64,000 bases of DNA from an uncultured Gammaproteobacteria bacterium (GTDB taxonomy: Bacteria; Patescibacteriota; Patescibacteriia; UBA1558; 2-01-FULL-52-15). Below the pieces are notes generated by a model. It saw nothing but the letters and a program-made list of their open reading frames with translations, was not told the DNA's origin and did not search any database. Numbering within the stretch: position 1 is the stretch's first letter; each line of letters begins with the position of its first letter. Location of the stretch: contig CAYOCJ010000001.1 of assembly GCA_964402565.1 (NCBI GenBank), positions 504,802 to 568,801 on the forward strand, in the 5' to 3' direction. Made by a program: the position numbers and the translations under genes. Positions 8,085 to 35,033 of the stretch are shown here, piece after piece.

Positions 8085-9602
8085 ATGTCGCAGGATAAAC
8101 GAAGTTTTTTAATGTACCGCGCACTGGAAATGTTGCCAGGTATTTTAGTATGGGCAACGTTCATCGCTGTTACTGCTCTGTCACTGGTCAGGCCGATTTT
8201 AGCCATTTATTTTATTATCTTGTTCGATCTCTACTGGCTGCTTCGCGTTTCGTATTTGATGCTGTATATTTTCATATCGTGGACTCGCTATCGAAAGACC
8301 AAACGCATCGACTGGAACGAACAGCTTGAAAAGGACTTTCATGATGCAAAGACAAAACGCTGGAGAGAGTATTGGCATGTTATTTTTCTGCCGACATATA
8401 AAGAACCACTCGAGATAGTTGAGGCGAGCATTCGGGCCATCGTTGATTCATCGTACCTAGATAAAAAAAAGATGATCGTGGTGCTCGCAGGCGAGGAGCG
8501 AGATGGTCAGCATTTCAAATCGGTTGCCGAACACATTACGAAAAACTATCAGCAGCACTTCAATGCATTGCTCGTTACCATTCACCCAAGCGGGATTGAT
8601 GGCGAATTGCCTGGCAAGGGTTCTAATTTGTACCATGCGGGGCATGAAGCGCAAGCGTACATTGACCGGCAGGCTATTGAGTACTCAAAAATAATCGTAT
8701 CCACTTTTGACATCGACACCATCGCGCATCGTCAGTATTTTTCATATTTGACGTATCAATTTTTGAACCACCCAAATCCCTACCGTGCGAGTTTCCAGCC
8801 ATTGACGTTTTATCATAATAATATTTGGGAATCTGATCTCATTACGCGCGTCGTCGCGAATTCGACGACCTTTTGGCTCCTGACGGACCTTGCCCGTTCT
8901 GATCGATTGTTCACTTTTTCATCGCACAGCATGAGCTGGCGCGCTCTCGTAGATATAGGTTTTTGGCAAAATAACATCGTAACCGAAGACTCGCGGATCT
9001 TTTTGCAATGCCTTATCCGCTACAATGGCGATTACCAGGTATTCCCTATGTATATAACGGTTTCGATGAATACCGTCTTCGTAGGCTCGCTGAAACGCAG
9101 CCTGATCAATCAATATAAGCAAATGCGCCGCTGGGCATATGGCGTCGAGCATTTTCCGTATATGGTGTGGCACTTTTCGCGGAATAAAAAAATACCGCTG
9201 AAAAAAAAGATCTCATACCTTTGGAATCAGACTGAAGGCGTATATTCATGGGCAACTGCACCGATCATTATGTTCATCGCAGGACGCCTGCCTCTCATGA
9301 TCACGGACATCAATAAAGATAATTCGATTGTCATTCAGCAGGCACCGCTGATCCTGAGTTTTATCATGACCTTAGCGCTCTGGGGCATCATTGTCATAGC
9401 CATACTCAGCACCCTCATCTTGCCTCCGCGGCCAATGAAAGGGATGAATAAAGTGATCCAGTATGGAGTCATGGTCGCTCAATGGGCCTTGTTTCCGATT
9501 ACCATGATCATTTTCGGGGCATTCCCGGCTATCGACGCACAGACGCGGCTAATGATCGGCAAATATTTGGATTTTTGGGTGACTGAAAAAAAATCCGTCT
9601 GA
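8085..9602 (+). CDS. Processive family-2 glycosyltransferase (cellulose/chitin/PNAG-synthase-like) with N- and C-terminal TM helices
   Basis: DxD (FDIDTIAH), TED motif (VTEDSRIF) and QxxRW motif (QMRRWAYG). Multiple TM helices flank the catalytic domain. Confidence 0.75.
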   Translation: MSQDKRSFLMYRALEMLPGILVWATFIAVTALSLVRPILAIYFIILFDLYWLLRVSYLMLYIFISWTRYRKTKRIDWNEQLEKDFHDAKTKRWREYWHVIFLPTYKEPLEIVEASIRAIVDSSYLDKKKMIVVLAGEERDGQHFKSVAEHITKNYQQHFNALLVTIHPSGIDGELPGKGSNLYHAGHEAQAYIDRQAIEYSKIIVSTFDIDTIAHRQYFSYLTYQFLNHPNPYRASFQPLTFYHNNIWESDLITRVVANSTTFWLLTDLARSDRLFTFSSHSMSWRALVDIGFWQNNIVTEDSRIFLQCLIRYNGDYQVFPMYITVSMNTVFVGSLKRSLINQYKQMRRWAYGVEHFPYMVWHFSRNKKIPLKKKISYLWNQTEGVYSWATAPIIMFIAGRLPLMITDINKDNSIVIQQAPLILSFIMTLALWGIIVIAILSTLILPPRPMKGMNKVIQYGVMVAQWALFPITMIIFGAFPAIDAQTRLMIGKYLDFWVTEKKSV

Positions 9603-19080: not shown

Positions 19081-19584
19081 ATGAATCAGCAAAAAACAAT
19101 AGCAATGGTCGTCGGATCGCTTGCGGTCATCGTCATCCTTGGAGTGATAGTTATGATGCAACCGGCGCATATCATCACACCGGCGAACACAAATACGAAC
19201 GAAACGCTTACAGAAAATGCTAATATTAATCAACCAGTGCCAGAACAGCCAACAACTATGGATACACTCAAGACTGAAACAGTGAAGAAAGGAAGCGGTC
19301 CAGCAGCACAAGCAGGTAATGAAGTAACCGTGCATTATACAGGCACGTTAGACGACGGAAGCAAATTTGATTCGAGCAGAGACCGGGGAACACCTTTTAC
19401 ATTCACGCTCGGGCAGCACCAGGTGATCGAAGGCTGGGAACAGGGCGTGCTCGGCATGCAGGTCGGTGAAGAGCGAAAACTGACCATTCCTTCAAGCCTC
19501 GGTTACGGTGACACTGGCTATCCGCCGGTGATACCAGCGAAAGCAACACTGCACTTCGACATTGAATTGCTGGGAATCAAATAA
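19081..19584 (+). CDS. FKBP-type peptidyl-prolyl cis-trans isomerase with N-terminal TM anchor
   Basis: [65 protein letters not shown] is a canonical FKBP domain. Confidence 0.92.
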
Positions 19585-19592
19585 ATGAAAAT

Positions 19593-19630
19593 AAAATCAC
19601 CCCGACCAACGTCGGGGTGATTTTTTCTTT
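19593..19630. terminator. Bidirectional rho-independent terminator between convergent genes
   Basis: aaaatcaccccgac-caac-gtcggggtgatttt hairpin with T-runs on both strands. Confidence 0.7.
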
Positions 19631-19635
19631 GTCCG

Positions 19636-20094
19636 CTACAATGTTTCGTCAACTCCTTGGCCAGTACTATCTTCTGCTATTGGTGTAACCTTGCAGGCCT
19701 TGCGGTCAGCGGTGAACTGTCTCCACGAGGCATGCTTCGCGTCGCGGAACGTTTTGCGTATGGTTCGCACTGAATCCCGGTAATTCTTCCAGGCAGCCTT
19801 CAATGCTGCTCTGCGCGCAACCTTATCAGTAATGCCCCAGGCAGTAACCAGGGCATTCTTTCGCGTCATCAGAGCTGTCTTTATCGCTGCACTATAGGTA
19901 TCTAAAGCCGATATAATGGCAGTGTCACGCTTTTCAACAGCTGCTTGAATGCATGCAGGATCAAACGGAGGATTGGTATTCGTATTGATCGGGGGCAAAT
20001 CGATCGAAACTTGGGCTCTTCCTACGGATACAGGTGAGAACAACAAGGTTCCTAGGACCGCAAAAAAAGCTAACATGCTGACAATTTTCTTCAT
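19636..20094 (-). CDS. Secreted hypothetical protein (signal peptide, alpha-helical, Lys/Arg-rich)
   Basis: Signal peptide FFAVLGTLLFSPVSVGRA. No known motif. Confidence 0.5.
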   Translation of the reverse strand: MKKIVSMLAFFAVLGTLLFSPVSVGRAQVSIDLPPINTNTNPPFDPACIQAAVEKRDTAIISALDTYSAAIKTALMTRKNALVTAWGITDKVARRAALKAAWKNYRDSVRTIRKTFRDAKHASWRQFTADRKACKVTPIAEDSTGQGVDETL

Positions 20095-20220
20095 AGAATT
20101 ATTATGGTTAATAGTTTTGGAGAGTTCGACGAGGCTCTACATACTGATGACGTATCCAAGATATTTTCTTTCAAGTCGAACTATAGTATAGCACAAAACA
20201 ACAGTTTCTATGCAATTGAC

Positions 20221-20399
20221 GGGGGCTGTTGACTTGTGATCGGCACAAGCAGTAAGGTCGAATTGCAGGTCGGATGCCGCAATCCTGGCTTACAAGATGC
20301 GGGTCGTCAGAAACGACAACGAAAGGAGATAACTCTTGGATACGTTCGACTTGTAGTGGGGCAGGCCCTTTTCGAAGGACACTGCCCCTTCCACTTTTT
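20221..20399 (+). ncRNA. Candidate small structured RNA of unknown family (GC-rich, multi-hairpin, ends in an intrinsic terminator)
   Basis: About 180 nt and GC-rich relative to its flanks. It contains a series of hairpins (cuugug-AUCGGC-acaag; guaagg...cuuac; gucg-ucagaaa-cgac). It ends with ggggcag-N17-ctgcccc + ttccacttttt, which is a terminator only on the plus strand, and no plus-strand CDS precedes it. It could not be matched to tmRNA, SRP RNA, RNase P or 6S by eye. Confidence 0.3.
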
Positions 20400-20408
20400 A
20401 AAGCCCTA

Positions 20409-21740
20409 TTAATCCACTGATCCTGAAAACATCGGTATCCCTAAACGCCGCCGTTTCGTCTCATCCTTGAATAATTGGGTCATGCGCCTCGGCGCATCGC
20501 CCCGTGCACCCAAATGTTGAGAAAAATTATGTGCCTGAAAGCTCGAGGCAAGATACACCACATGCTTCCCGTAATAGCCCGCGAGCTCATCCATGCCTTT
20601 ATATACATAGGATAATTTCTCAGCGCGCACGCTGGCGCCGAATAGATCCATCTGATGCACATCATCAGTAGTCAAATCCAATAGAACCACGCCGGTCATA
20701 CGGTAGCGGAGCGTCGGGTCAAAAAAATCATCAAAAGAATCTTCAAGAACCTTAATGATCTCATTTGGATACGCGCTTGCCCGCGTTAGTTTCGCTGATA
20801 TGGCATATTCCTTGAATTCCTGAGTTCTCAATACGAAAACTACTTCTTTAGCAGCCTGATGATGGCGCCGTGCTTTAATACAGGCATTTTCAATGTTCTT
20901 GGACAGTTGCGCGAGCACGAATGTACGCTCGGATGAGGGGGGAGTAAAGGTCTTCATCTTTTGAATAGAATAATATGTTTCATGTTCATCCGTCAGAAGA
21001 CTCATAACTGAGATGCCGTTCAGCTCCTGCCATATCTCAATAAATGGTTTTGAAAAATGTTTCCGCACCCAAGCCTCCGGACGCTCTGCAAAGGCAAGGG
21101 CAGTGGTAATGCCATACTTCGCCAACAGGGCAGTAGTCTGAGGCCCGATGCCCCAAACGTTGCCAGCAGGGAGGTCCCGCAAAAAATCCTGACGGGTCCG
21201 GGCGCTGATAAGCGTCAGGCCATGGGGCTTATTCCACTTTGAAGCAACCTTTGCCAATACCTTGGTTGGCGCAAGGCCGATGGAAAAAGTAAAACCAAGC
21301 TCGCGCGTCAGGTCGCTATCGATCTTTTCAGCGATCTGGCGATAGGAACTATGCAATGGCCTTCGCATACCGGTAATGTCCGCGAAGCACTCGTCGATCC
21401 CGTACTCTTCGAGGTCCGAGGTATAACGGCGCACAATGCTATAAAATCGTTTCGAAAGGAGACTATAGGTCTCATAATCAGACGGTATGATGATCACCTG
21501 TGGAATAAGTTTTTTGATCTCAGCAAGGCTCATGCCGCGAGTAGCGCCTTGTGCTTTTGCCTCATAGCTGATGCTTGAAGCAATACCGCGTTCTTTGCCG
21601 GTGACGACCGGCTTGCCTTTCAATTTGAAGTTCAGGGACTGCTCGCAGGACGCAAAAAAAGCATCTCCATCGATATGGAGAATCGCGCGCGGGAATGACG
21701 AATGTGCTCCAAATGGCATACGATCAATATTTACGGACAA
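20409..21740 (-). CDS. dinB: Y-family DNA polymerase (DNA polymerase IV / DinB-UmuC family)
   Basis: N-terminal ILHIDGDAFFASCEQ (the Y-family catalytic DxD/FF motif). The UmuC-like core overlaps the lexA stop by 17 nt. Confidence 0.88.
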   Translation of the reverse strand: MSVNIDRMPFGAHSSFPRAILHIDGDAFFASCEQSLNFKLKGKPVVTGKERGIASSISYEAKAQGATRGMSLAEIKKLIPQVIIIPSDYETYSLLSKRFYSIVRRYTSDLEEYGIDECFADITGMRRPLHSSYRQIAEKIDSDLTRELGFTFSIGLAPTKVLAKVASKWNKPHGLTLISARTRQDFLRDLPAGNVWGIGPQTTALLAKYGITTALAFAERPEAWVRKHFSKPFIEIWQELNGISVMSLLTDEHETYYSIQKMKTFTPPSSERTFVLAQLSKNIENACIKARRHHQAAKEVVFVLRTQEFKEYAISAKLTRASAYPNEIIKVLEDSFDDFFDPTLRYRMTGVVLLDLTTDDVHQMDLFGASVRAEKLSYVYKGMDELAGYYGKHVVYLASSFQAHNFSQHLGARGDAPRRMTQLFKDETKRRRLGIPMFSGSVD

Positions 21741-22290
21741 CCGCTTTCACGATCGCTGCGATCTTAAGCTCATCTTTCGGCACAATGGGCGGATACTTTG
21801 GGTTACCAGGCTGCAGCCATGTCTTGCCTTTTTCTTTACGCAAATACTTCATGGTCCAGCCAGTGTCTATTTCAGCAATAACGATATCGCCATCACGAGC
21901 ATCGCTGCGCCGCTCGACCAAAACCATATCACCCGGCATGATGCCTGCCTCGATCATTGAATCGCCTGATACTTTAAGAAGATAGGTTGCATCGCGATGT
22001 TCTATCAAATACTCATCCAGGCTCATAGTATCCGTAAGCTCTTCTTCAGCAGGGGACGGAAAGCCAGCTTCGACAGCACCCAAAAGAGAAATAGACCCCA
22101 TGAGCTTATTGGGGATAAGTTTACCCTTCGCATCCTTGCTCAATATGCCCTCAGAAAGGTAGTTCCTAACCAATTTATAGGCCGAATTCTTTGATTTAAA
22201 GCCCATTAGACGCATGATCTCAGCATAACTGGGCATCCGACGGTTCTGCCTATAAAAATCGTTTATTTTGTGAATTCTTGAAATGGCCAT
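21724..22290 (-). CDS. lexA: LexA repressor (wHTH + S24 peptidase)
   Basis: N-terminal winged HTH (YAEIMRLMGFKSKNSAYKLVRNYL). S24 Ser-Lys dyad context (KVSGDSMIEAGI ... K). The start was trimmed to MAISRIHK at 22290, because the track's upstream TTG start lies inside the -35 box. Confidence 0.85.
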   Translation of the reverse strand: MAISRIHKINDFYRQNRRMPSYAEIMRLMGFKSKNSAYKLVRNYLSEGILSKDAKGKLIPNKLMGSISLLGAVEAGFPSPAEEELTDTMSLDEYLIEHRDATYLLKVSGDSMIEAGIMPGDMVLVERRSDARDGDIVIAEIDTGWTMKYLRKEKGKTWLQPGNPKYPPIVPKDELKIAAIVKAVVRKY

Positions 22291-22296
22291 AGATAT

Positions 22297-22326
22297 AGTA
22301 TAGGTGAACGTTCGTTCACCTGTCAA
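22297..22326 (-). promoter_or_regulatory. lexA promoter: -35 TTGACA, 18-nt spacer, -10 TATACT; transcript probably leaderless or with a very short leader
   Basis: Minus strand reads TTGACA-ggtgaacgaacgttcacc-TATACT. The ATG lies 7 nt after the -10. Confidence 0.6.
22302..22321. promoter_or_regulatory. LexA operator (SOS box): 20-bp near-perfect palindrome AGGTGAACGTTCGTTCACCT, GAAC-N4-GTTC (Cheo-box) type
   Basis: 9-bp inverted arms. It is located exactly in the lexA promoter spacer. The GAAC-N4-GTTC core matches Gram-positive LexA boxes. Confidence 0.7.
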
Positions 22327-22372
22327 ATGCCAGGCCTTAGCAAAGGGTTTTTACTTTTTCACTGATAGAGAA

Positions 22373-23098
22373 TCAGATCTTTTCAGCACAGACGATCAGG
22401 GAGAGTCCAATGAGGGGACTCAGAATGCCGTTCATCAGTTGAGCAAGCGGCAGCATCTGTTCATACAGCTTTACGCCAGAACGGGGGATGCTTGTTTTCT
22501 GGGCTATACCACCCATGAACGCCCAGCCAGGTATGCCGAATGGATTAAAGTAGCGAACGCTGAGGGGTTTCATAGAGTGCCTGGTGACCAGATCAATGCA
22601 TGATTGTTTCGTATATCTGCGTTCATGGCCGAGAGCCTTGTCGAGATGATTAAAAAGCATAGGCAGCGCAGGAACGAATAGCACAATGCGGCCACCAGGT
22701 TTCAGTAATGATCGCATGCTTTCGACAGCAATATCATGATGACGGATATGCTCGAGAACATTGATCGCAAAGATACTGTCAATAGTTCCTTGCAGCCCTT
22801 GGACTGCCGAACCGGCCGCATCGAGCGGCACATTCAAATCAATACGATGTGAGCCGAGATAATTTGGATTCCCCCGGAAGCGCTTATCAAGATCATCGCA
22901 GTAGACCATTTCATAATCGCTCAAAAAACAACGAAACTCCTTAAGCGCCAACTCTGAAAAGGTGCCGGTCCCGCTGCCGAATTCAAAAACTGTCCCTTTC
23001 AGAAATGGCCGTATAGCGCTATACATCCACTGGTTCAGCTTGTGAGCGTCTCCCAAGGTTTCAAGCGTCGTGTGGCCGGTATATTCGAAATGCTCCAT
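22373..23098 (-). CDS. Class I SAM-dependent methyltransferase (small-molecule/protein MTase type)
   Basis: Motif I VFEFGSGTGTFS and motif post-I/II spacing typical of Methyltransf_11/23. Confidence 0.7.
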   Translation of the reverse strand: MEHFEYTGHTTLETLGDAHKLNQWMYSAIRPFLKGTVFEFGSGTGTFSELALKEFRCFLSDYEMVYCDDLDKRFRGNPNYLGSHRIDLNVPLDAAGSAVQGLQGTIDSIFAINVLEHIRHHDIAVESMRSLLKPGGRIVLFVPALPMLFNHLDKALGHERRYTKQSCIDLVTRHSMKPLSVRYFNPFGIPGWAFMGGIAQKTSIPRSGVKLYEQMLPLAQLMNGILSPLIGLSLIVCAEKI

Positions 23099-23103
23099 GG
23101 TAT

Positions 23104-24048
23104 TTATTTTTTTAGGGGATGAAATTTCTGATGCTCTGATTCAGCATAACGATCTGACGCATGTACATAGCGCGTCGTCGTATCAAGTGATTCATGGCCG
23201 AGGAGGACTTGAATTGCGGCCGGGTTAGCTCCTGATTCTGCCAAATAGGTTGCAAAACCATGCCGCAGGCTATGCGCGCTCGTTGGCACATTGATATTCA
23301 AAGCTTCCCGATACTCTTTGATCTTTGCCTGCAAATAATTGGATGAAATGCCTTTGAAGCTGCTGCCGGTATTTCTGCCGCGCAATGGTACCCACAGATG
23401 CGGCAAGCGATCGCCGCGAGTCTTCAAATAGCGGTCGACCTGTTTCAAAGCGCGCTCAGTCAGATACACAAAACGCTCCTTTTTGCCTTTTCCTTTGATA
23501 AAGATCTTGCCGGACTTATAATCGATCTGGTCGCGTTTCAGGCTGAGGAGCTCAGAAATACGCATGCCGGTAGCAAACAGCATCTCAAGCATAGCGCGAT
23601 TGCGCAAACCAACATGTGCATCTTTTTCAAGAGCCTCAGGAGACTCAATGAGCTTGATGAGTTCATCAAGTTCAGCGACTCTGCCATGTTTCTTGTCAGT
23701 GCGGATCAATTTGATCGCCTCGGGCGCCATCGGAACCTTCTCATCCATGTCGATCATAAACTTCAGATAATTCCGTAGTGATGAAAGCATGCGGTTAACT
23801 GAAAAGCTTGAAAGCTTGCCATGTACCTTAGCGCCTTTAGCAGTACGCCTATTGATAGAGTAGAGGTAGGCTTTATAGTCCTCAATAGTAGATTTCTTGA
23901 TAGAGGAGAACTTGGTCTTTTGATACGTCAAAAAATTCTCAAACGTTGTTAAGTCGCGCTCATAATTCAAAAGAGTTTCTTCAGAATAATTGTTGCTCTG
24001 CAAGAATCTGAGAAAGGTCTCTTTTTTTGGAAGCGGGGAATCAGGCAT
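23104..24048 (-). CDS. Tyrosine site-specific recombinase, XerC/XerD-type
   Basis: N-terminal SAM-like core-binding domain (ETLLNYERDLTTFENFL). Catalytic R..HxxR..Y signature (HSLRHGFATYL ... LLGHESLDTTTRYVH). Confidence 0.8.
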   Translation of the reverse strand: MPDSPLPKKETFLRFLQSNNYSEETLLNYERDLTTFENFLTYQKTKFSSIKKSTIEDYKAYLYSINRRTAKGAKVHGKLSSFSVNRMLSSLRNYLKFMIDMDEKVPMAPEAIKLIRTDKKHGRVAELDELIKLIESPEALEKDAHVGLRNRAMLEMLFATGMRISELLSLKRDQIDYKSGKIFIKGKGKKERFVYLTERALKQVDRYLKTRGDRLPHLWVPLRGRNTGSSFKGISSNYLQAKIKEYREALNINVPTSAHSLRHGFATYLAESGANPAAIQVLLGHESLDTTTRYVHASDRYAESEHQKFHPLKK

Positions 24049-30098: not shown

Positions 30099-30971
30099 CT
30101 ACTTCAGATAGACATTATCATCATAACGGAGGTCTATATATTCTGCCGGCGCCTCAAAGTTACGATCCTGGAGATACACAGAAAGACGCTGTAATTGAGG
30201 GTGAATATCCTTATTCGGATCTACGTACACGCGAAATCCCTTATCGGTCGAAACGATAATGCGATCCTTGTCGTCAGTTAGATGAAAGCCGGTAAGCGCA
30301 GCCAGCTGGATCGATTGGCCCCAATCCTCAGCAATGGTCGTAGCTTTTTCCAGATAGTCTACCGGAATGCTGCGCTCTTTAACCGCGCGCTCATCAGCTA
30401 TCAGCAATTGATTCGGCTGAGGTTTGTCGACGGTTTCAAGAGCTTTCCCATCAGTGCCTAAGGTAAAATAGCCGTCCGGTGTTTGCACCACAAATGCAGT
30501 GATGCGCTCATGGACCGAGATCGTGACCGTATGCGGAAAAGATACATGCAGCGATGTGACGGTCAGATAAAACCGCTGCTCAAGCCTTTTCCTCATTTTT
30601 GTCTGAGCCAATAAGAAATAATTATCATTGCGGAAGATGAACAGCCGGCGTCTGTGCAATTCATCCATGATGAAGGATTGCACCTGTTCCAGAGGAATAT
30701 ATTTCAAACCCTGTATGCGCACATCGGTGATCCTGAACTGAGGGATCTGAAAGATGCTCTGCATCAGCAAAAAAACAGCGATCACAATAATGGCGATTTT
30801 CGCATACCGATAGCTCGCGGTCGGCGTTTTTCGTGAATACTGATTCTGATACAATGCTGAGCGGCCGGTGATCTGTGGGGCCATGCCGCCGTGATTTGCA
30901 ATAAACCGCGCCCGCGGCGTTTGATACAATTTTTGATTGATGCGTGGTATGCGTTTGTCCATACTGAACAC
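30099..30971 (-). CDS. ftsQ: Cell-division protein FtsQ/DivIB-like (TM + POTRA)
   Basis: Cytoplasmic N-terminus, then TM segment IAIIVIAVFLLMQSIF, then a POTRA-like FRITDVRIQGLKYIPLEQVQSFIM. Confidence 0.6.
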   Translation of the reverse strand: MFSMDKRIPRINQKLYQTPRARFIANHGGMAPQITGRSALYQNQYSRKTPTASYRYAKIAIIVIAVFLLMQSIFQIPQFRITDVRIQGLKYIPLEQVQSFIMDELHRRRLFIFRNDNYFLLAQTKMRKRLEQRFYLTVTSLHVSFPHTVTISVHERITAFVVQTPDGYFTLGTDGKALETVDKPQPNQLLIADERAVKERSIPVDYLEKATTIAEDWGQSIQLAALTGFHLTDDKDRIIVSTDKGFRVYVDPNKDIHPQLQRLSVYLQDRNFEAPAEYIDLRYDDNVYLK

Positions 30972-32098
30972 TAACTACTAATACGGCGCGGCAACAAAGG
31001 ATTGATGCGCGTAACGATCTCATAGTTGATCGTTCCTGCATGCTTCGCCAGCTCCTCAGCTGTTATTCTTTCCGAGCCTTGTTTTCCTATAAGGACCGCT
31101 TCGTCGCCCGATCGAGCATGCACCTGATGAGGCAATTCAGCCATGGTCAGGTTCATGCATATGCGTCCTCGTACCCGGCATCGCCGCCCTGCGATAAGTA
31201 TAGATGCTGCATTCGATAATTTCCGGTCATAGCCGTCAGCATAACCTATCGCTACGGTAGCGATACGCGTTTTTTTCTGTACACGATAACTCATCCCGTA
31301 ACCTATTGGATCTCCGGCTTTATGTTCCTTGATCTGTAAGATGGTTGTTTTCCAGGTAAGAACGGGCCGCAGCTGTATGTGCGTTCTATAGAATTTTTTG
31401 CTGTCCTTCGACGGCCATAACCCGTAAAGGGCTATTCCCAAACGCACGCCTTCATGAAGATATGACGATCCGCGCAATGCAGATGCGCTGCATGCAATAT
31501 GAGCAGGAGGCGCGGAGAAGCCTTTTTTCCGAATCGCATCAAGGCAAGCCATGAAGCGTTTGTGCTGGGTCTTTGTATATCGTTCATTAACATTTTCAGA
31601 ATCTGCGAAATGTCCGAAAATGCCGACGACATTCAGATGCTCCATTTGAAGCACCTGTACGATCTGATCGATCTCATCATGTTCAAAGCCCAAGCGGGCT
31701 GTCCCTACGTCCAGTTTGATATGCACCTGTATCTTCCTTTTCATCCGCTTACTAAGAGCATTCAGATATTTTGCAGAGCGTACATCGAAAATCGGCAATT
31801 CTACTCCTGCCCGGATGGCCAGTTTCAACTGGGCCTGATCCCGCTGCCACATGCTGAGTACAATGATCCTCTTTCGCGTCAGTTTTGTGAGCATCAAACT
31901 CTCGTCAAGACTGGCTACCATGAATCCGGAGACCGACGCATCAGATCGTAATACGCGCAACACCTCGACCATGCCGTGCCCATATGCATTACTTTTGACC
32001 ACACAAAAAAGGTCGCGGTTTCCGATAATTTTTTTGAAGACTTTGACATTATGCTGAAGTGCCGAGCGCGACACCTCAACCCATGAAAGATGCTGCAT
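30971..32098 (-). CDS. alr: Alanine racemase
   Basis: PLP-Lys motif CVVKSNAYGHG and the typical fold length. Confidence 0.88.
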   Translation of the reverse strand: MQHLSWVEVSRSALQHNVKVFKKIIGNRDLFCVVKSNAYGHGMVEVLRVLRSDASVSGFMVASLDESLMLTKLTRKRIIVLSMWQRDQAQLKLAIRAGVELPIFDVRSAKYLNALSKRMKRKIQVHIKLDVGTARLGFEHDEIDQIVQVLQMEHLNVVGIFGHFADSENVNERYTKTQHKRFMACLDAIRKKGFSAPPAHIACSASALRGSSYLHEGVRLGIALYGLWPSKDSKKFYRTHIQLRPVLTWKTTILQIKEHKAGDPIGYGMSYRVQKKTRIATVAIGYADGYDRKLSNAASILIAGRRCRVRGRICMNLTMAELPHQVHARSGDEAVLIGKQGSERITAEELAKHAGTINYEIVTRINPLLPRRISS

Positions 32099-33383: not shown

Positions 33384-35033
33384 TTAATTAGAGGCGCCGC
33401 TTTGATCCGCGCCCTCGGGATCATTTAACGGCTGCGTTGCATCATCACTGGCAGCACTCACATCAGCAAGACGCTGCAATACAAAATCTCTATCCAGGGC
33501 AGACAGGAACCATCCTGCCTGGGGGCCAGAATTTTTTCCCAAGAAACTTATGTAGATCGCGGAAAAAAGATCAGCAGGAGCAATGGCAAGCGTTGCCTTT
33601 ACCTCATGGATTTGCGTATGCAGCTCTTCACCAGTGAGTTCGTCATGTTCGCGAATATACTCGTAGATAGAACGCAACGACTGACGCTGTAAGGAGGTGA
33701 ACTCTTTTGCACCTTCGGGCGGTGCTTCTTGAATATCAAATTTATACTTTTCAGGGCTATACTGGGACAGCCATATTTTTGCATAGCGGGCCCTATCCTG
33801 ATACTCGCTCGCATCTGCATCGGTCAGTTGAGAACCTTTCATAGACGCAACTTTCTTCGCAAGATCAATGTGAGGCATTTGCACCAGATACGCTATCTGT
33901 GAGAAACGCGGCAGAAACGCTTCCTGAATCATGTTCCTGGACGAAGCCGGATAACATAATGGAAAAACCGATGTCCAATCTGATGCAGCGTTCTTAAAGT
34001 ATTCGCCTGCAATGGTGTCGAAATGATCATAGAGAATCGGAATGGTGTCTCCATAGGGTTCAAAGTCAATCTCATGCTTCGGCTCCTTCATCATAAGAAA
34101 GCGCAGCATGCGCGTCGGCAAAAGATCAGCAATTTCTTTTGCTGATGACCCTTTGCCTTTTGACGAGGACATCTTCGCACCACCGAGGGTAAAAAAATTA
34201 TAGGGAATATCGAGCGGCTCAGGGAACTGATAGATCTCTTTCAAAATTCGGCGCGCGATATCTCGCGATCCGCCTTTCGTATAGTGATCCTTTCCTCCGC
34301 CTTCCAGATGCACGCCTAGCACCATGAACTTTGCCGCCCATTCTACTTTCCAAGGCAATTTCGCTCGTCCGTCAAATGGATCTACTTTGCCAGAATGGCC
34401 GCAACCGACGGCCCACTTCACCAAATCAGCACTGCACGCATAAGATACTTGCTTGCCGTCCCATGCGGTCACCTTTGTAGTGCCTACTTTGCGGCATTGC
34501 TCACAGATGACCTGTAAGGGAAACCAATCATCGCCCTTATCAGATCCAGAAACCTCTTTATATATTTTTCTTATCTTGTCTGCATTGTCCAATGCAAGGC
34601 GAATGGCATTATTATATTTCCCGCCCAAATAAAGCGTACTCGAGCGATAGTACTCGGGCGTAAAGCCGGTATGTTCAACAGCAACCATAAACTCCTGCGC
34701 CCAGTACTCTGCATAGTTCGGTGCTGTCGGATCCGGTGAGGGTACCTCATACAAAGGACGCCCCATATAGGGACGATAGAGCTCCTGGTCAAGGTAGACC
34801 GGCAAACCGTCCATTGGGTCAAAATCATTCACTTCGAATAGGTACTTGTTTGGAATCTTCGCTTCGGTCAGCACATCTGAAACTATGCCATGAATGACGA
34901 CGCCTCTGAGCGAACCCACATGTACTCTGCCGGACATCGTTTTTTCATCGCGAATAATAAGAGGCTTGCCAGCGGCAATTTCTTTTGCAAAACGATTTTT
35001 AGCTGAATCTCGAAGTTTATATCCCCAAAACAT
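33384..35033 (-). CDS. lysK: Lysine--tRNA ligase, class I (LysK type)
   Basis: SGRVHVGSLRG (HIGH-equivalent) and KMSSSKG (KMSKS-equivalent), as in archaeal-type class I LysRS. Confidence 0.8.
   Translation of the reverse strand: MFWGYKLRDSAKNRFAKEIAAGKPLIIRDEKTMSGRVHVGSLRGVVIHGIVSDVLTEAKIPNKYLFEVNDFDPMDGLPVYLDQELYRPYMGRPLYEVPSPDPTAPNYAEYWAQEFMVAVEHTGFTPEYYRSSTLYLGGKYNNAIRLALDNADKIRKIYKEVSGSDKGDDWFPLQVICEQCRKVGTTKVTAWDGKQVSYACSADLVKWAVGCGHSGKVDPFDGRAKLPWKVEWAAKFMVLGVHLEGGGKDHYTKGGSRDIARRILKEIYQFPEPLDIPYNFFTLGGAKMSSSKGKGSSAKEIADLLPTRMLRFLMMKEPKHEIDFEPYGDTIPILYDHFDTIAGEYFKNAASDWTSVFPLCYPASSRNMIQEAFLPRFSQIAYLVQMPHIDLAKKVASMKGSQLTDADASEYQDRARYAKIWLSQYSPEKYKFDIQEAPPEGAKEFTSLQRQSLRSIYEYIREHDELTGEELHTQIHEVKATLAIAPADLFSAIYISFLGKNSGPQAGWFLSALDRDFVLQRLADVSAASDDATQPLNDPEGADQSGASN

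Follow-up and report, generated by a model that had tools for sequence, protein, structure and literature searches.

The locus described here lies on the minus strand of a 64-kb stretch of contig CAYOCJ010000001.1 (the whole of this stretch is called the window in the following) and comprises lexA, the gene of the SOS repressor, the gene of a Y-family translesion polymerase directly behind it and, upstream of both, a near-consensus promoter in which the spacer between the -35 and -10 hexamers is itself a palindrome, the predicted LexA operator (Table 1). This succession of -35 hexamer, palindrome and -10 hexamer had been proposed in a preliminary description made from the sequence of the window, and all of its minus-strand coordinates were reproduced in our analysis. 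As a basis for comparison we used 80 related loci, one per species and 738 kb in total, in which the genes, their promoter and the box could be followed across relatives of the host.

Table 1. Coordinates of the genes, codons and regulatory elements of the lexA-polymerase locus (window numbering; for minus-strand promoter elements the larger number is given first)
Feature	Position	Strand	Remark
-35 hexamer TTGACA of the lexA operon promoter	22326-22321	minus	6/6 consensus match
Promoter spacer GGTGAACGAACGTTCACC, 18 nt	22320-22303	minus	equals the palindrome GGTGAAC-N4-GTTCACC
-10 hexamer TATACT	22302-22297	minus	followed by ATATCT, then ATG
Predicted LexA operator, 20-bp palindrome AGGTGAAC-GTTC-GTTCACCT	22302-22321	not applicable	8-bp arms; central N4 = GTTC
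Operator core GTGAAC-N4-GTTCAC	22304-22319		
Inner repeat GAAC-N4-GTTC = GAACGTTCGTTC	22306-22317		Gram-positive-type SOS box inverted repeat present
lexA coding sequence, 188 amino acids	21724-22290	minus	winged helix-turn-helix (wHTH) domain (about residues 1-60), short linker, S24 autopeptidase domain
lexA ATG start codon	22288-22290	minus	6 nt after the -10; A at 22290 also the predicted transcription start
A75-G76 codons, predicted self-cleavage bond (VEA/GFPSPAEE, cleaved at the slash)	22063-22068	minus	aligns with VAAGEP of E. coli LexA
S111 codon, predicted nucleophile, GDSM motif	21958-21960	minus	aligns with E. coli S119 in SGMSM
K148 codon, predicted general base of the Ser/Lys dyad	21847-21849	minus	aligns with E. 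coli K156 in VTVKRL
Junction tcgt, 4 nt	21720-21723	minus	between lexA TGA (21726-21724) and polymerase ATG (21719); without Shine-Dalgarno (SD) sequence
Y-family translesion polymerase, DinB-like, 436 amino acids	20409-21719	minus	IMS and IMS_C domains; conserved catalytic residues

LexA, the polymerase and their start codons

The first gene of the locus had been described as lexA on account of a wHTH domain joined to an S24 domain, and both parts of this assignment were borne out. Its product passed the NCBIfam lexA equivalog model TIGR00498 (121.9 bits against a cut-off of 110.95), with residues 9-187 aligned to positions 15-201 of the 203 positions of the model, and contained a Pfam Peptidase_S24 match (3.5e-29). 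Structures of E. coli LexA aligned to residues 9-171 and thus to both domains (E = 2.5e-21). In the AlphaFold (AF2) model, which had a mean predicted local distance difference test (pLDDT) score of 75 and reached 81-89 in the N-terminal domain, helices at residues 2-16, 22-29 and 34-47 and strands at residues 50-52 and 58-60 form three helices and a two-stranded wing that are followed by the S24 domain. When this model was submitted to Foldseek, full-length LexA structures were returned on top, led by the LexA-DNA complex 3jso (1e-12). Moreover, the residues of the predicted cleavage bond and of the catalytic dyad, A75, G76, S111 and K148, are invariant across 29 homologues. Among 8,000 scored candidates 7,924 were LexA homologues at E <= 1e-10, the 120 best of which showed 60-74% identity; the few homologues with a named source are labelled Patescibacteria, Paceibacterota or Taylorbacteria, and the host is a bacterium of the Patescibacteria (Candidate Phyla Radiation, CPR). 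Contigs with a Patescibacteria-type lexA operon were also found under the labels Bathyarchaeia, Gammaproteobacteria, Terriglobia, Syntrophorhabdus, Nitrospirae, Bacteroidales, WOR-3 and Actinomycetes (loci L008, L010, L022, L028, L034, L060, L067 and L073, and others), and these contigs probably represent mis-binned or mislabelled metagenome-assembled genomes.

Three different start codons have been considered for lexA, of which only the ATG at 22290 agrees with the length of the LexA homologues (187-191 amino acids). The public gene call (P0001) begins at Met19 and predicts a protein of 170 amino acids. However, the 12 codons in front of Met19 (codons 7-18) have entropies of 1.01, 0.78 and 1.55 at codon positions 1, 2 and 3, respectively, like the codons that follow, and residues I9, F12, Y13 and R18 are conserved. 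Given this third-position variation and these conserved residues, the 18 N-terminal codons show the properties of a coding region, and the conservation of codons 7-18 at the protein level rules out Met19 as the start. The public annotation of P0001 consequently loses 18 conserved N-terminal residues. The third candidate, TTG 22326, opens an open reading frame (ORF) of 200 amino acids and consists of the first three bases of the -35 hexamer. Since the distance between the TTGACA hexamer and lexA varies from 13 to about 750 nt in the relatives, the hexamer must be regarded as a promoter element and not as a codon, in agreement with the preliminary description, which had called the longer TTG-initiated LexA an artefact. 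In databases other LexA homologues are called at 200-230 amino acids, probably because an in-frame codon further upstream, like the -35 TTG of the window, was taken as the start.

The second gene had been named dinB, and the analysis supported its membership of the Y family as well as its proximity to DNA polymerase IV (Pol IV), but not the strict use of that name. Pfam identified the IMS domain (1.2e-42) and the little finger domain IMS_C (7.2e-11), the closest solved structures are Pol IV enzymes (7yll, 4e-38; E. coli DinB, 1.8e-30), and the 43 homologues compared share the catalytic residues D17, D109 and E110. However, the best NCBIfam match, the Pol IV model NF002677, scored 203.4 bits and thus remained below its cut-off of 256, seven other Pol IV models were likewise below cut-off, and the UmuC model reached 148 bits against a cut-off of 431, less than the Pol IV score. 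Because all curated Pol IV scores are below cut-off we use the term DinB-like, and judged by these scores the enzyme is a DinB-like member of the Y family rather than a strict dinB orthologue. Towards its C-terminus the polymerase carries the motif FKGET-x-R-[KR]-R-L-x-IP-[MF]-[FL]-G, of which the part R-L-x-IP-[MF]-[FL]-G is conserved in the 43 homologues and, by sequence alone, resembles beta-clamp-binding motifs.

The preliminary description had also reported that the two genes overlap by 17 nt. Such an overlap (21724-21740) is a real feature of the longest ORFs only; as an overlap of genes it hinges on TTG 21740 as the polymerase start (443 amino acids), a codon that lies inside conserved C-terminal codons of LexA (AVVRKY) and has no counterpart in most relatives. 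This start is therefore unlikely, and the overlap is probably an artefact of ORF calling. In the relatives the polymerase ATG is located between 4 nt before and about 20 nt after the lexA stop, and 6-10 residues precede the conserved FPRAILHIDGD motif of the polymerase. The ATG at 21719 matches this pattern, is separated from the lexA stop by 4 nt and coincides with the public gene call of 436 amino acids, and translational coupling of the two genes across this short junction appears likely. In summary, two gene starts are corrected, giving a LexA of 188 amino acids instead of 170 or 200 and a polymerase of 436 amino acids instead of 443.

The LexA box and its conservation

When the region 19500-23500 was scanned for the sigma-70 consensus, the lexA promoter emerged as the top-ranked promoter-like site, with 11 of 12 positions matched and a spacer of 18 nt. 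This spacer is wholly occupied by the operator palindrome, which at either end extends by one base into the hexamers and so takes in the final base of the -35 and the initial base of the -10. The bare core GAAC-N4-GTTC was found once in the window against 0.86 occurrences expected, which is not significant alone, and the exact sequence GTGAAC-N4-GTTCAC also has a single occurrence in the 64 kb. With a weight matrix that was trained on the boxes of 72 relatives, the window site being excluded, the lexA operator scored 32.3 bits, as compared to 9.7 bits for the runner-up in the window and 14.9 bits for the best site among 20 shuffles. Neither the exact-pattern scan nor the weight-matrix scan detected a further LexA box in the window, and the preliminary statement that there is no second copy thus holds; the two weak matches, one at 33695 with 9.7 bits and one at 8897 with 8.7 bits, are located within genes and have scores in the range of the shuffles, which corresponds to chance level.

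The preliminary description had named a lack of the palindrome in front of lexA in relatives as one finding that would refute its interpretation, but the box is present upstream of the lexA operon in 78 of the 80 species. A box of the GTGAAC-N4-GTTCAC type was located at most 400 nt upstream of lexA in 72 loci and 475-750 nt upstream in six more; of the two remaining loci, one is on a contig that ends too near lexA to tell, and one is without a box. All 78 boxes sit in a spacer of 17-18 nt between a -35-like hexamer (TTGACA in 22, TTGACG in 13 and TTTACA in 11 cases) and a -10 hexamer (TATAAT in 35 and TATACT in 33 cases). The arms GTGAAC and GTTCAC are identical in 56 of these 78 relatives, while the central tetramer occurs in 36 forms. 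Nearly invariant arms around a free centre are the pattern expected of a site that is bound by a protein dimer.

The palindrome might, on the other hand, function as a nucleic-acid hairpin, for instance as the terminator of the upstream gene, or as the site of a factor other than LexA. A stem of 8 bp with a loop of 4 nt could form 46 nt past the stop codon of the upstream methyltransferase gene, and in three relatives both half-sites are changed symmetrically (GTGTAC-N4-GTACAC in L009; TTGAAC-N4-GTTCAA and TAGAAC-N4-GTTCTA in L012 and L027). However, there is no T-run, a terminator scan did not flag the site, and transcripts from the lexA promoter would exclude the palindrome. In addition, the sequence of the arms, beyond their capacity to pair, is kept in the 56 relatives regardless of the gene upstream, the box is always positioned ahead of the lexA operon and flanked by a -35 and a -10 hexamer, and the known GAAC-N4-GTTC type points to LexA. 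We therefore consider a hairpin or a site for another factor highly improbable as compared to a LexA operator. The symmetrically altered boxes of the three relatives are, from their sequences, candidates for a co-evolution of LexA specificity and operator.

Outside the lexA operon such boxes are rare. In the 738 kb of related loci the sole other site of at least 15 bits (L049:7181) was located immediately in front of a polymerase gene detached from lexA. When metagenomes were scanned for a box with a -10 hexamer behind it, 121 sites were obtained, 97 of which have lexA within 2.5 kb downstream, mostly behind a small ORF. Of the other metagenome boxes one is located before an isolated polymerase gene and a few before genes of restriction-modification methylases or of the small subunit of a phage terminase; most of the remainder are on truncated contigs. 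With regard to a possible regulon, the window contains a single box, and in relatives and metagenomes boxes occur mainly at the lexA operon, and also at the detached polymerase genes (L049, L173), two methylases and the phage terminase.

Some of these loci deserve a separate description. Polymerase genes detached from lexA have a promoter-embedded LexA box of their own (L049:7181-7200 and L173); in L173 the box lies about 40 nt before the polymerase start and the -10 hexamer ends 6 nt before the ATG, so that this gene, too, looks leaderless. To judge from the translations, the genes behind a promoter-embedded box in L084, L105, L106 and L137 are two DNA methylase genes of the restriction-modification type and one for the small subunit of a phage terminase; these boxes may indicate additional targets of LexA or a control of prophages in Patescibacteria. 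Furthermore, in six relatives a DnaA-box-like sequence, which is absent from the window, occurs a few bases upstream of the -35 hexamer of the lexA operon (L031:~4330, L038:~3330, L046:~3875, L048:~4220, L053:~4230 and L055:~4505); its sequence is CTATCCACA in L046 and TTATCCACA in the other five.

Operon types and the proposed regulation

In 53 of the 80 relatives the polymerase gene directly follows lexA, either as a plain lexA-polymerase pair (40 loci) or with a small ORF in front of lexA (13 loci), whereas the remaining 27 loci are of the small ORF-lexA type and lexA alone was not observed. The small ORF is thus conserved between the LexA-box promoter and lexA in 40 of the 80 species. It encodes about 65-70 amino acids with the pattern 'MSKHQ..IR.EI.RLN.EID..II.G..YR.EA.RH.FL' and a hydrophobic tail (examples are L029:4793-4996, L004:4772-4972 and L141:619-822), matched no family in Pfam and NCBIfam, and may represent an uncharacterised SOS effector. 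A homologue of the small ORF is absent from the window; a match at 31444-31527 (E = 0.002), which runs antisense within a 375-amino acid ORF (30971-32098), is attributed to chance.

The close association of the two genes raises the question whether the S24 protein might act mainly as a local UmuD-like partner or regulator of the polymerase in the style of UmuDAb, with its C-terminal fragment taking the part of UmuD'. In favor of such a role, the C-terminal domain also exceeds the cut-off of the NCBIfam UmuD subfamily (116.3 against 110), the close junction of lexA and polymerase recalls umuDC, and high-scoring boxes are nearly confined to the lexA operon. Yet the whole length of the protein matches the lexA equivalog above cut-off, the polymerase scores higher as Pol IV than as UmuC, and a few boxes do precede other genes, such as those of the methylases and the terminase. 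Moreover, the 27 relatives of the small ORF-lexA type have LexA, in most cases without a polymerase within 2-5 kb downstream, indicating that LexA is independent of the polymerase. DinB-type polymerases need no UmuD'. We therefore regard a mainly UmuD-like function as unlikely. Slightly less probable still is an SOS response shrunk to this one unit without other regulon members, in which the C-terminal fragment of LexA would double as a UmuD'-like polymerase subunit. If this were true, promoter, operator and start codon would be packed into about 45 bp that drive a leaderless lexA-polymerase message, and LexA would be both the repressor and an accessory factor of the polymerase.

Building on the observed gene identities, the geometry of promoter and operator and their conservation, we instead favor, with a probability of roughly 85%, the interpretation that the locus is an autoregulated SOS operon of a Patescibacteria bacterium, in which one sigma-70-type promoter would serve a bicistronic message of lexA and the Y-family polymerase. 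In such an operon a LexA dimer would bind to the GTGAAC-N4-GTTCAC palindrome and, because the palindrome constitutes the entire -35/-10 spacer, would exclude RNA polymerase from the promoter by occlusion. Upon DNA damage activated RecA would trigger the self-cleavage of LexA at A75-G76 through S111 and K148, the freed operator would permit the production of LexA and of the translesion polymerase, and fresh LexA would close the promoter again. Transcription is predicted to start at, or 1-2 nt from, the A of the lexA ATG, yielding a leaderless mRNA from which the polymerase would be translated by coupling over the 4-nt junction. The conservation of the box and its position in the promoter of the lexA operon in 78 of the 80 relatives strongly supports the autoregulatory part of this scheme.

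Several observations weigh against this interpretation, some of them against the regulatory circuit and others against the leaderless message. The match of LexA to the Pfam family LexA_DNA_bind is sub-threshold (E = 0.0085). No recA was found in the window or in the related loci with an approximate E. coli RecA sequence as the query, and since recA is not in the window the inducing arm of the circuit is assumed. The leaderless geometry is shared by only 16 of the 80 relatives, while about 22 have leaders of 20-100 nt and others have the small ORF first. Between the stop codon of the upstream methyltransferase gene (22373) and the promoter (22326) there is no terminator, so that leadered read-through transcripts are possible. 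Finally, an SD sequence within 20 nt of the start was detected as three weak matches among about 49 window ORFs of at least 150 amino acids, and SD-independent initiation appears to be the rule in this host. As the SD sequence is missing nearly throughout the window, its absence at lexA does not point specifically to a leaderless mRNA, and we dropped it as an argument.

What points to a leaderless lexA mRNA is the position of the promoter. The preliminary description had placed the ATG about 7 nt behind the -10 hexamer; 6 nt intervene, and the A at 22290 is the seventh nucleotide after the -10. With such a gap a 5' untranslated region could be about 2 nt long at most. A gap of 6-8 nt is found in the 16 relatives as well, of which 15 start with ATG and one with GTG, and in other loci with the same promoter this spacing is seen in front of the small ORF or of an isolated polymerase gene. 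Alternatively, lexA might be translated from a leadered mRNA, either because RNA polymerase reads through from the methyltransferase gene or starts at another promoter upstream, or because translation begins at Met19. The missing terminator, the public call of 170 amino acids, the longer leaders in many relatives and a host that initiates without SD sequences anyway would all be compatible with this explanation. However, Met19 cannot be the start in view of the conserved residues 7-18, a near-consensus promoter stands just 6 nt before the ATG, and the short spacing recurs in 16 species and at other genes. Hence, we consider a leadered message rather unlikely, and the geometry makes a leaderless lexA mRNA fairly probable. 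A text search of the literature provided nothing further on LexA in Patescibacteria, CPR or Parcubacteria or on leaderless transcripts of Patescibacteria.

The surroundings of the operon consist of housekeeping genes, which include those for Glu-tRNA synthetase, formyltransferase, an FtsQ-type protein and an S41 protease. Although a Xer-like tyrosine recombinase is encoded two genes upstream, a mobile-element origin of the locus is unsupported given these housekeeping neighbors. The polymerase stop is followed by a non-coding stretch of 314 nt (20095-20408) with a G+C-rich inverted repeat, GGGGCAG...CTGCCCC, at about 20359-20388; a T-run follows this repeat on the plus strand only, which is unlike a classical terminator for a minus-strand operon. 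A search of the whole 64-kb window against Rfam found no family at gathering score (no tRNA, rRNA or riboswitch), and none in 20095-20408.

If the operon is regulated in the way favored here, an uncultured bacterium with a tiny genome keeps a classical LexA switch and ties it directly to a mutagenic polymerase. In addition, the clean model of operator and promoter, conserved in 78 of the 80 species, could be used for the annotation of SOS genes and promoters across Patescibacteria. The understanding of how SOS regulation works is unchanged by this locus.

Comparison with known SOS systems

The inverted repeat GAAC-N4-GTTC is the LexA motif of Firmicutes and Actinobacteria and has variants in other phyla (PMC4951493). 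The Gram-positive Cheo box, for example that of B. subtilis lexA/dinR, has the same core inverted repeat with the same spacing, and there, too, lexA is autoregulated by an operator that overlaps the promoter. Likewise, LexA of the Gram-positive type has the same design of wHTH and S24 domains with an Ala-Gly cleavage site and a Ser/Lys dyad. In contrast to this type, the window locus shows longer conserved arms (GGTGAAC/GTTCACC) and an operator that is exactly equal to the spacer, its LexA is shorter, with 188 amino acids, and its mRNA is probably leaderless. In its recognition helix the window LexA has the sequence KSKNAVYKL, unlike E. coli LexA.

A similar arrangement is found in E. coli umuDC (Pol V), where the gene of an S24 autopeptidase is likewise located immediately upstream of, and closely coupled to, that of a Y-family polymerase and is preceded by a LexA box. 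However, the S24 protein of the window has a wHTH domain and is LexA itself, and its polymerase fits Pol IV better than UmuC (203 versus 148 bits), both scores being below cut-off. Closer in phylogenetic terms is the SOS network of Patescibacteria, on which Sanchez-Osuna, Barbe and Erill published in 2017 (Environ Microbiol 19:3465) and for which they reportedly described a LexA regulon of small size with lexA and translesion synthesis at its centre; this network and the window locus belong to the same superphylum and have the same regulator.

Geobacter sulfurreducens reportedly has two autoregulated lexA genes with an operon of the lexA-dinB type. The co-transcription of lexA and a Y-family polymerase gene under their own operator, reported for Geobacter and predicted for the window, would thus be a shared feature, but the phyla are different and the box of the window is GAAC-N4-GTTC instead of GGTT-N10-AACC, the Geobacter LexA box as given in a passage of PMC8565304. 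In summary, operons of lexA with a polymerase gene and operators that overlap the promoter are already well known; that the operator matches the spacer exactly and that the message is predicted to be leaderless is neat, but not surprising.

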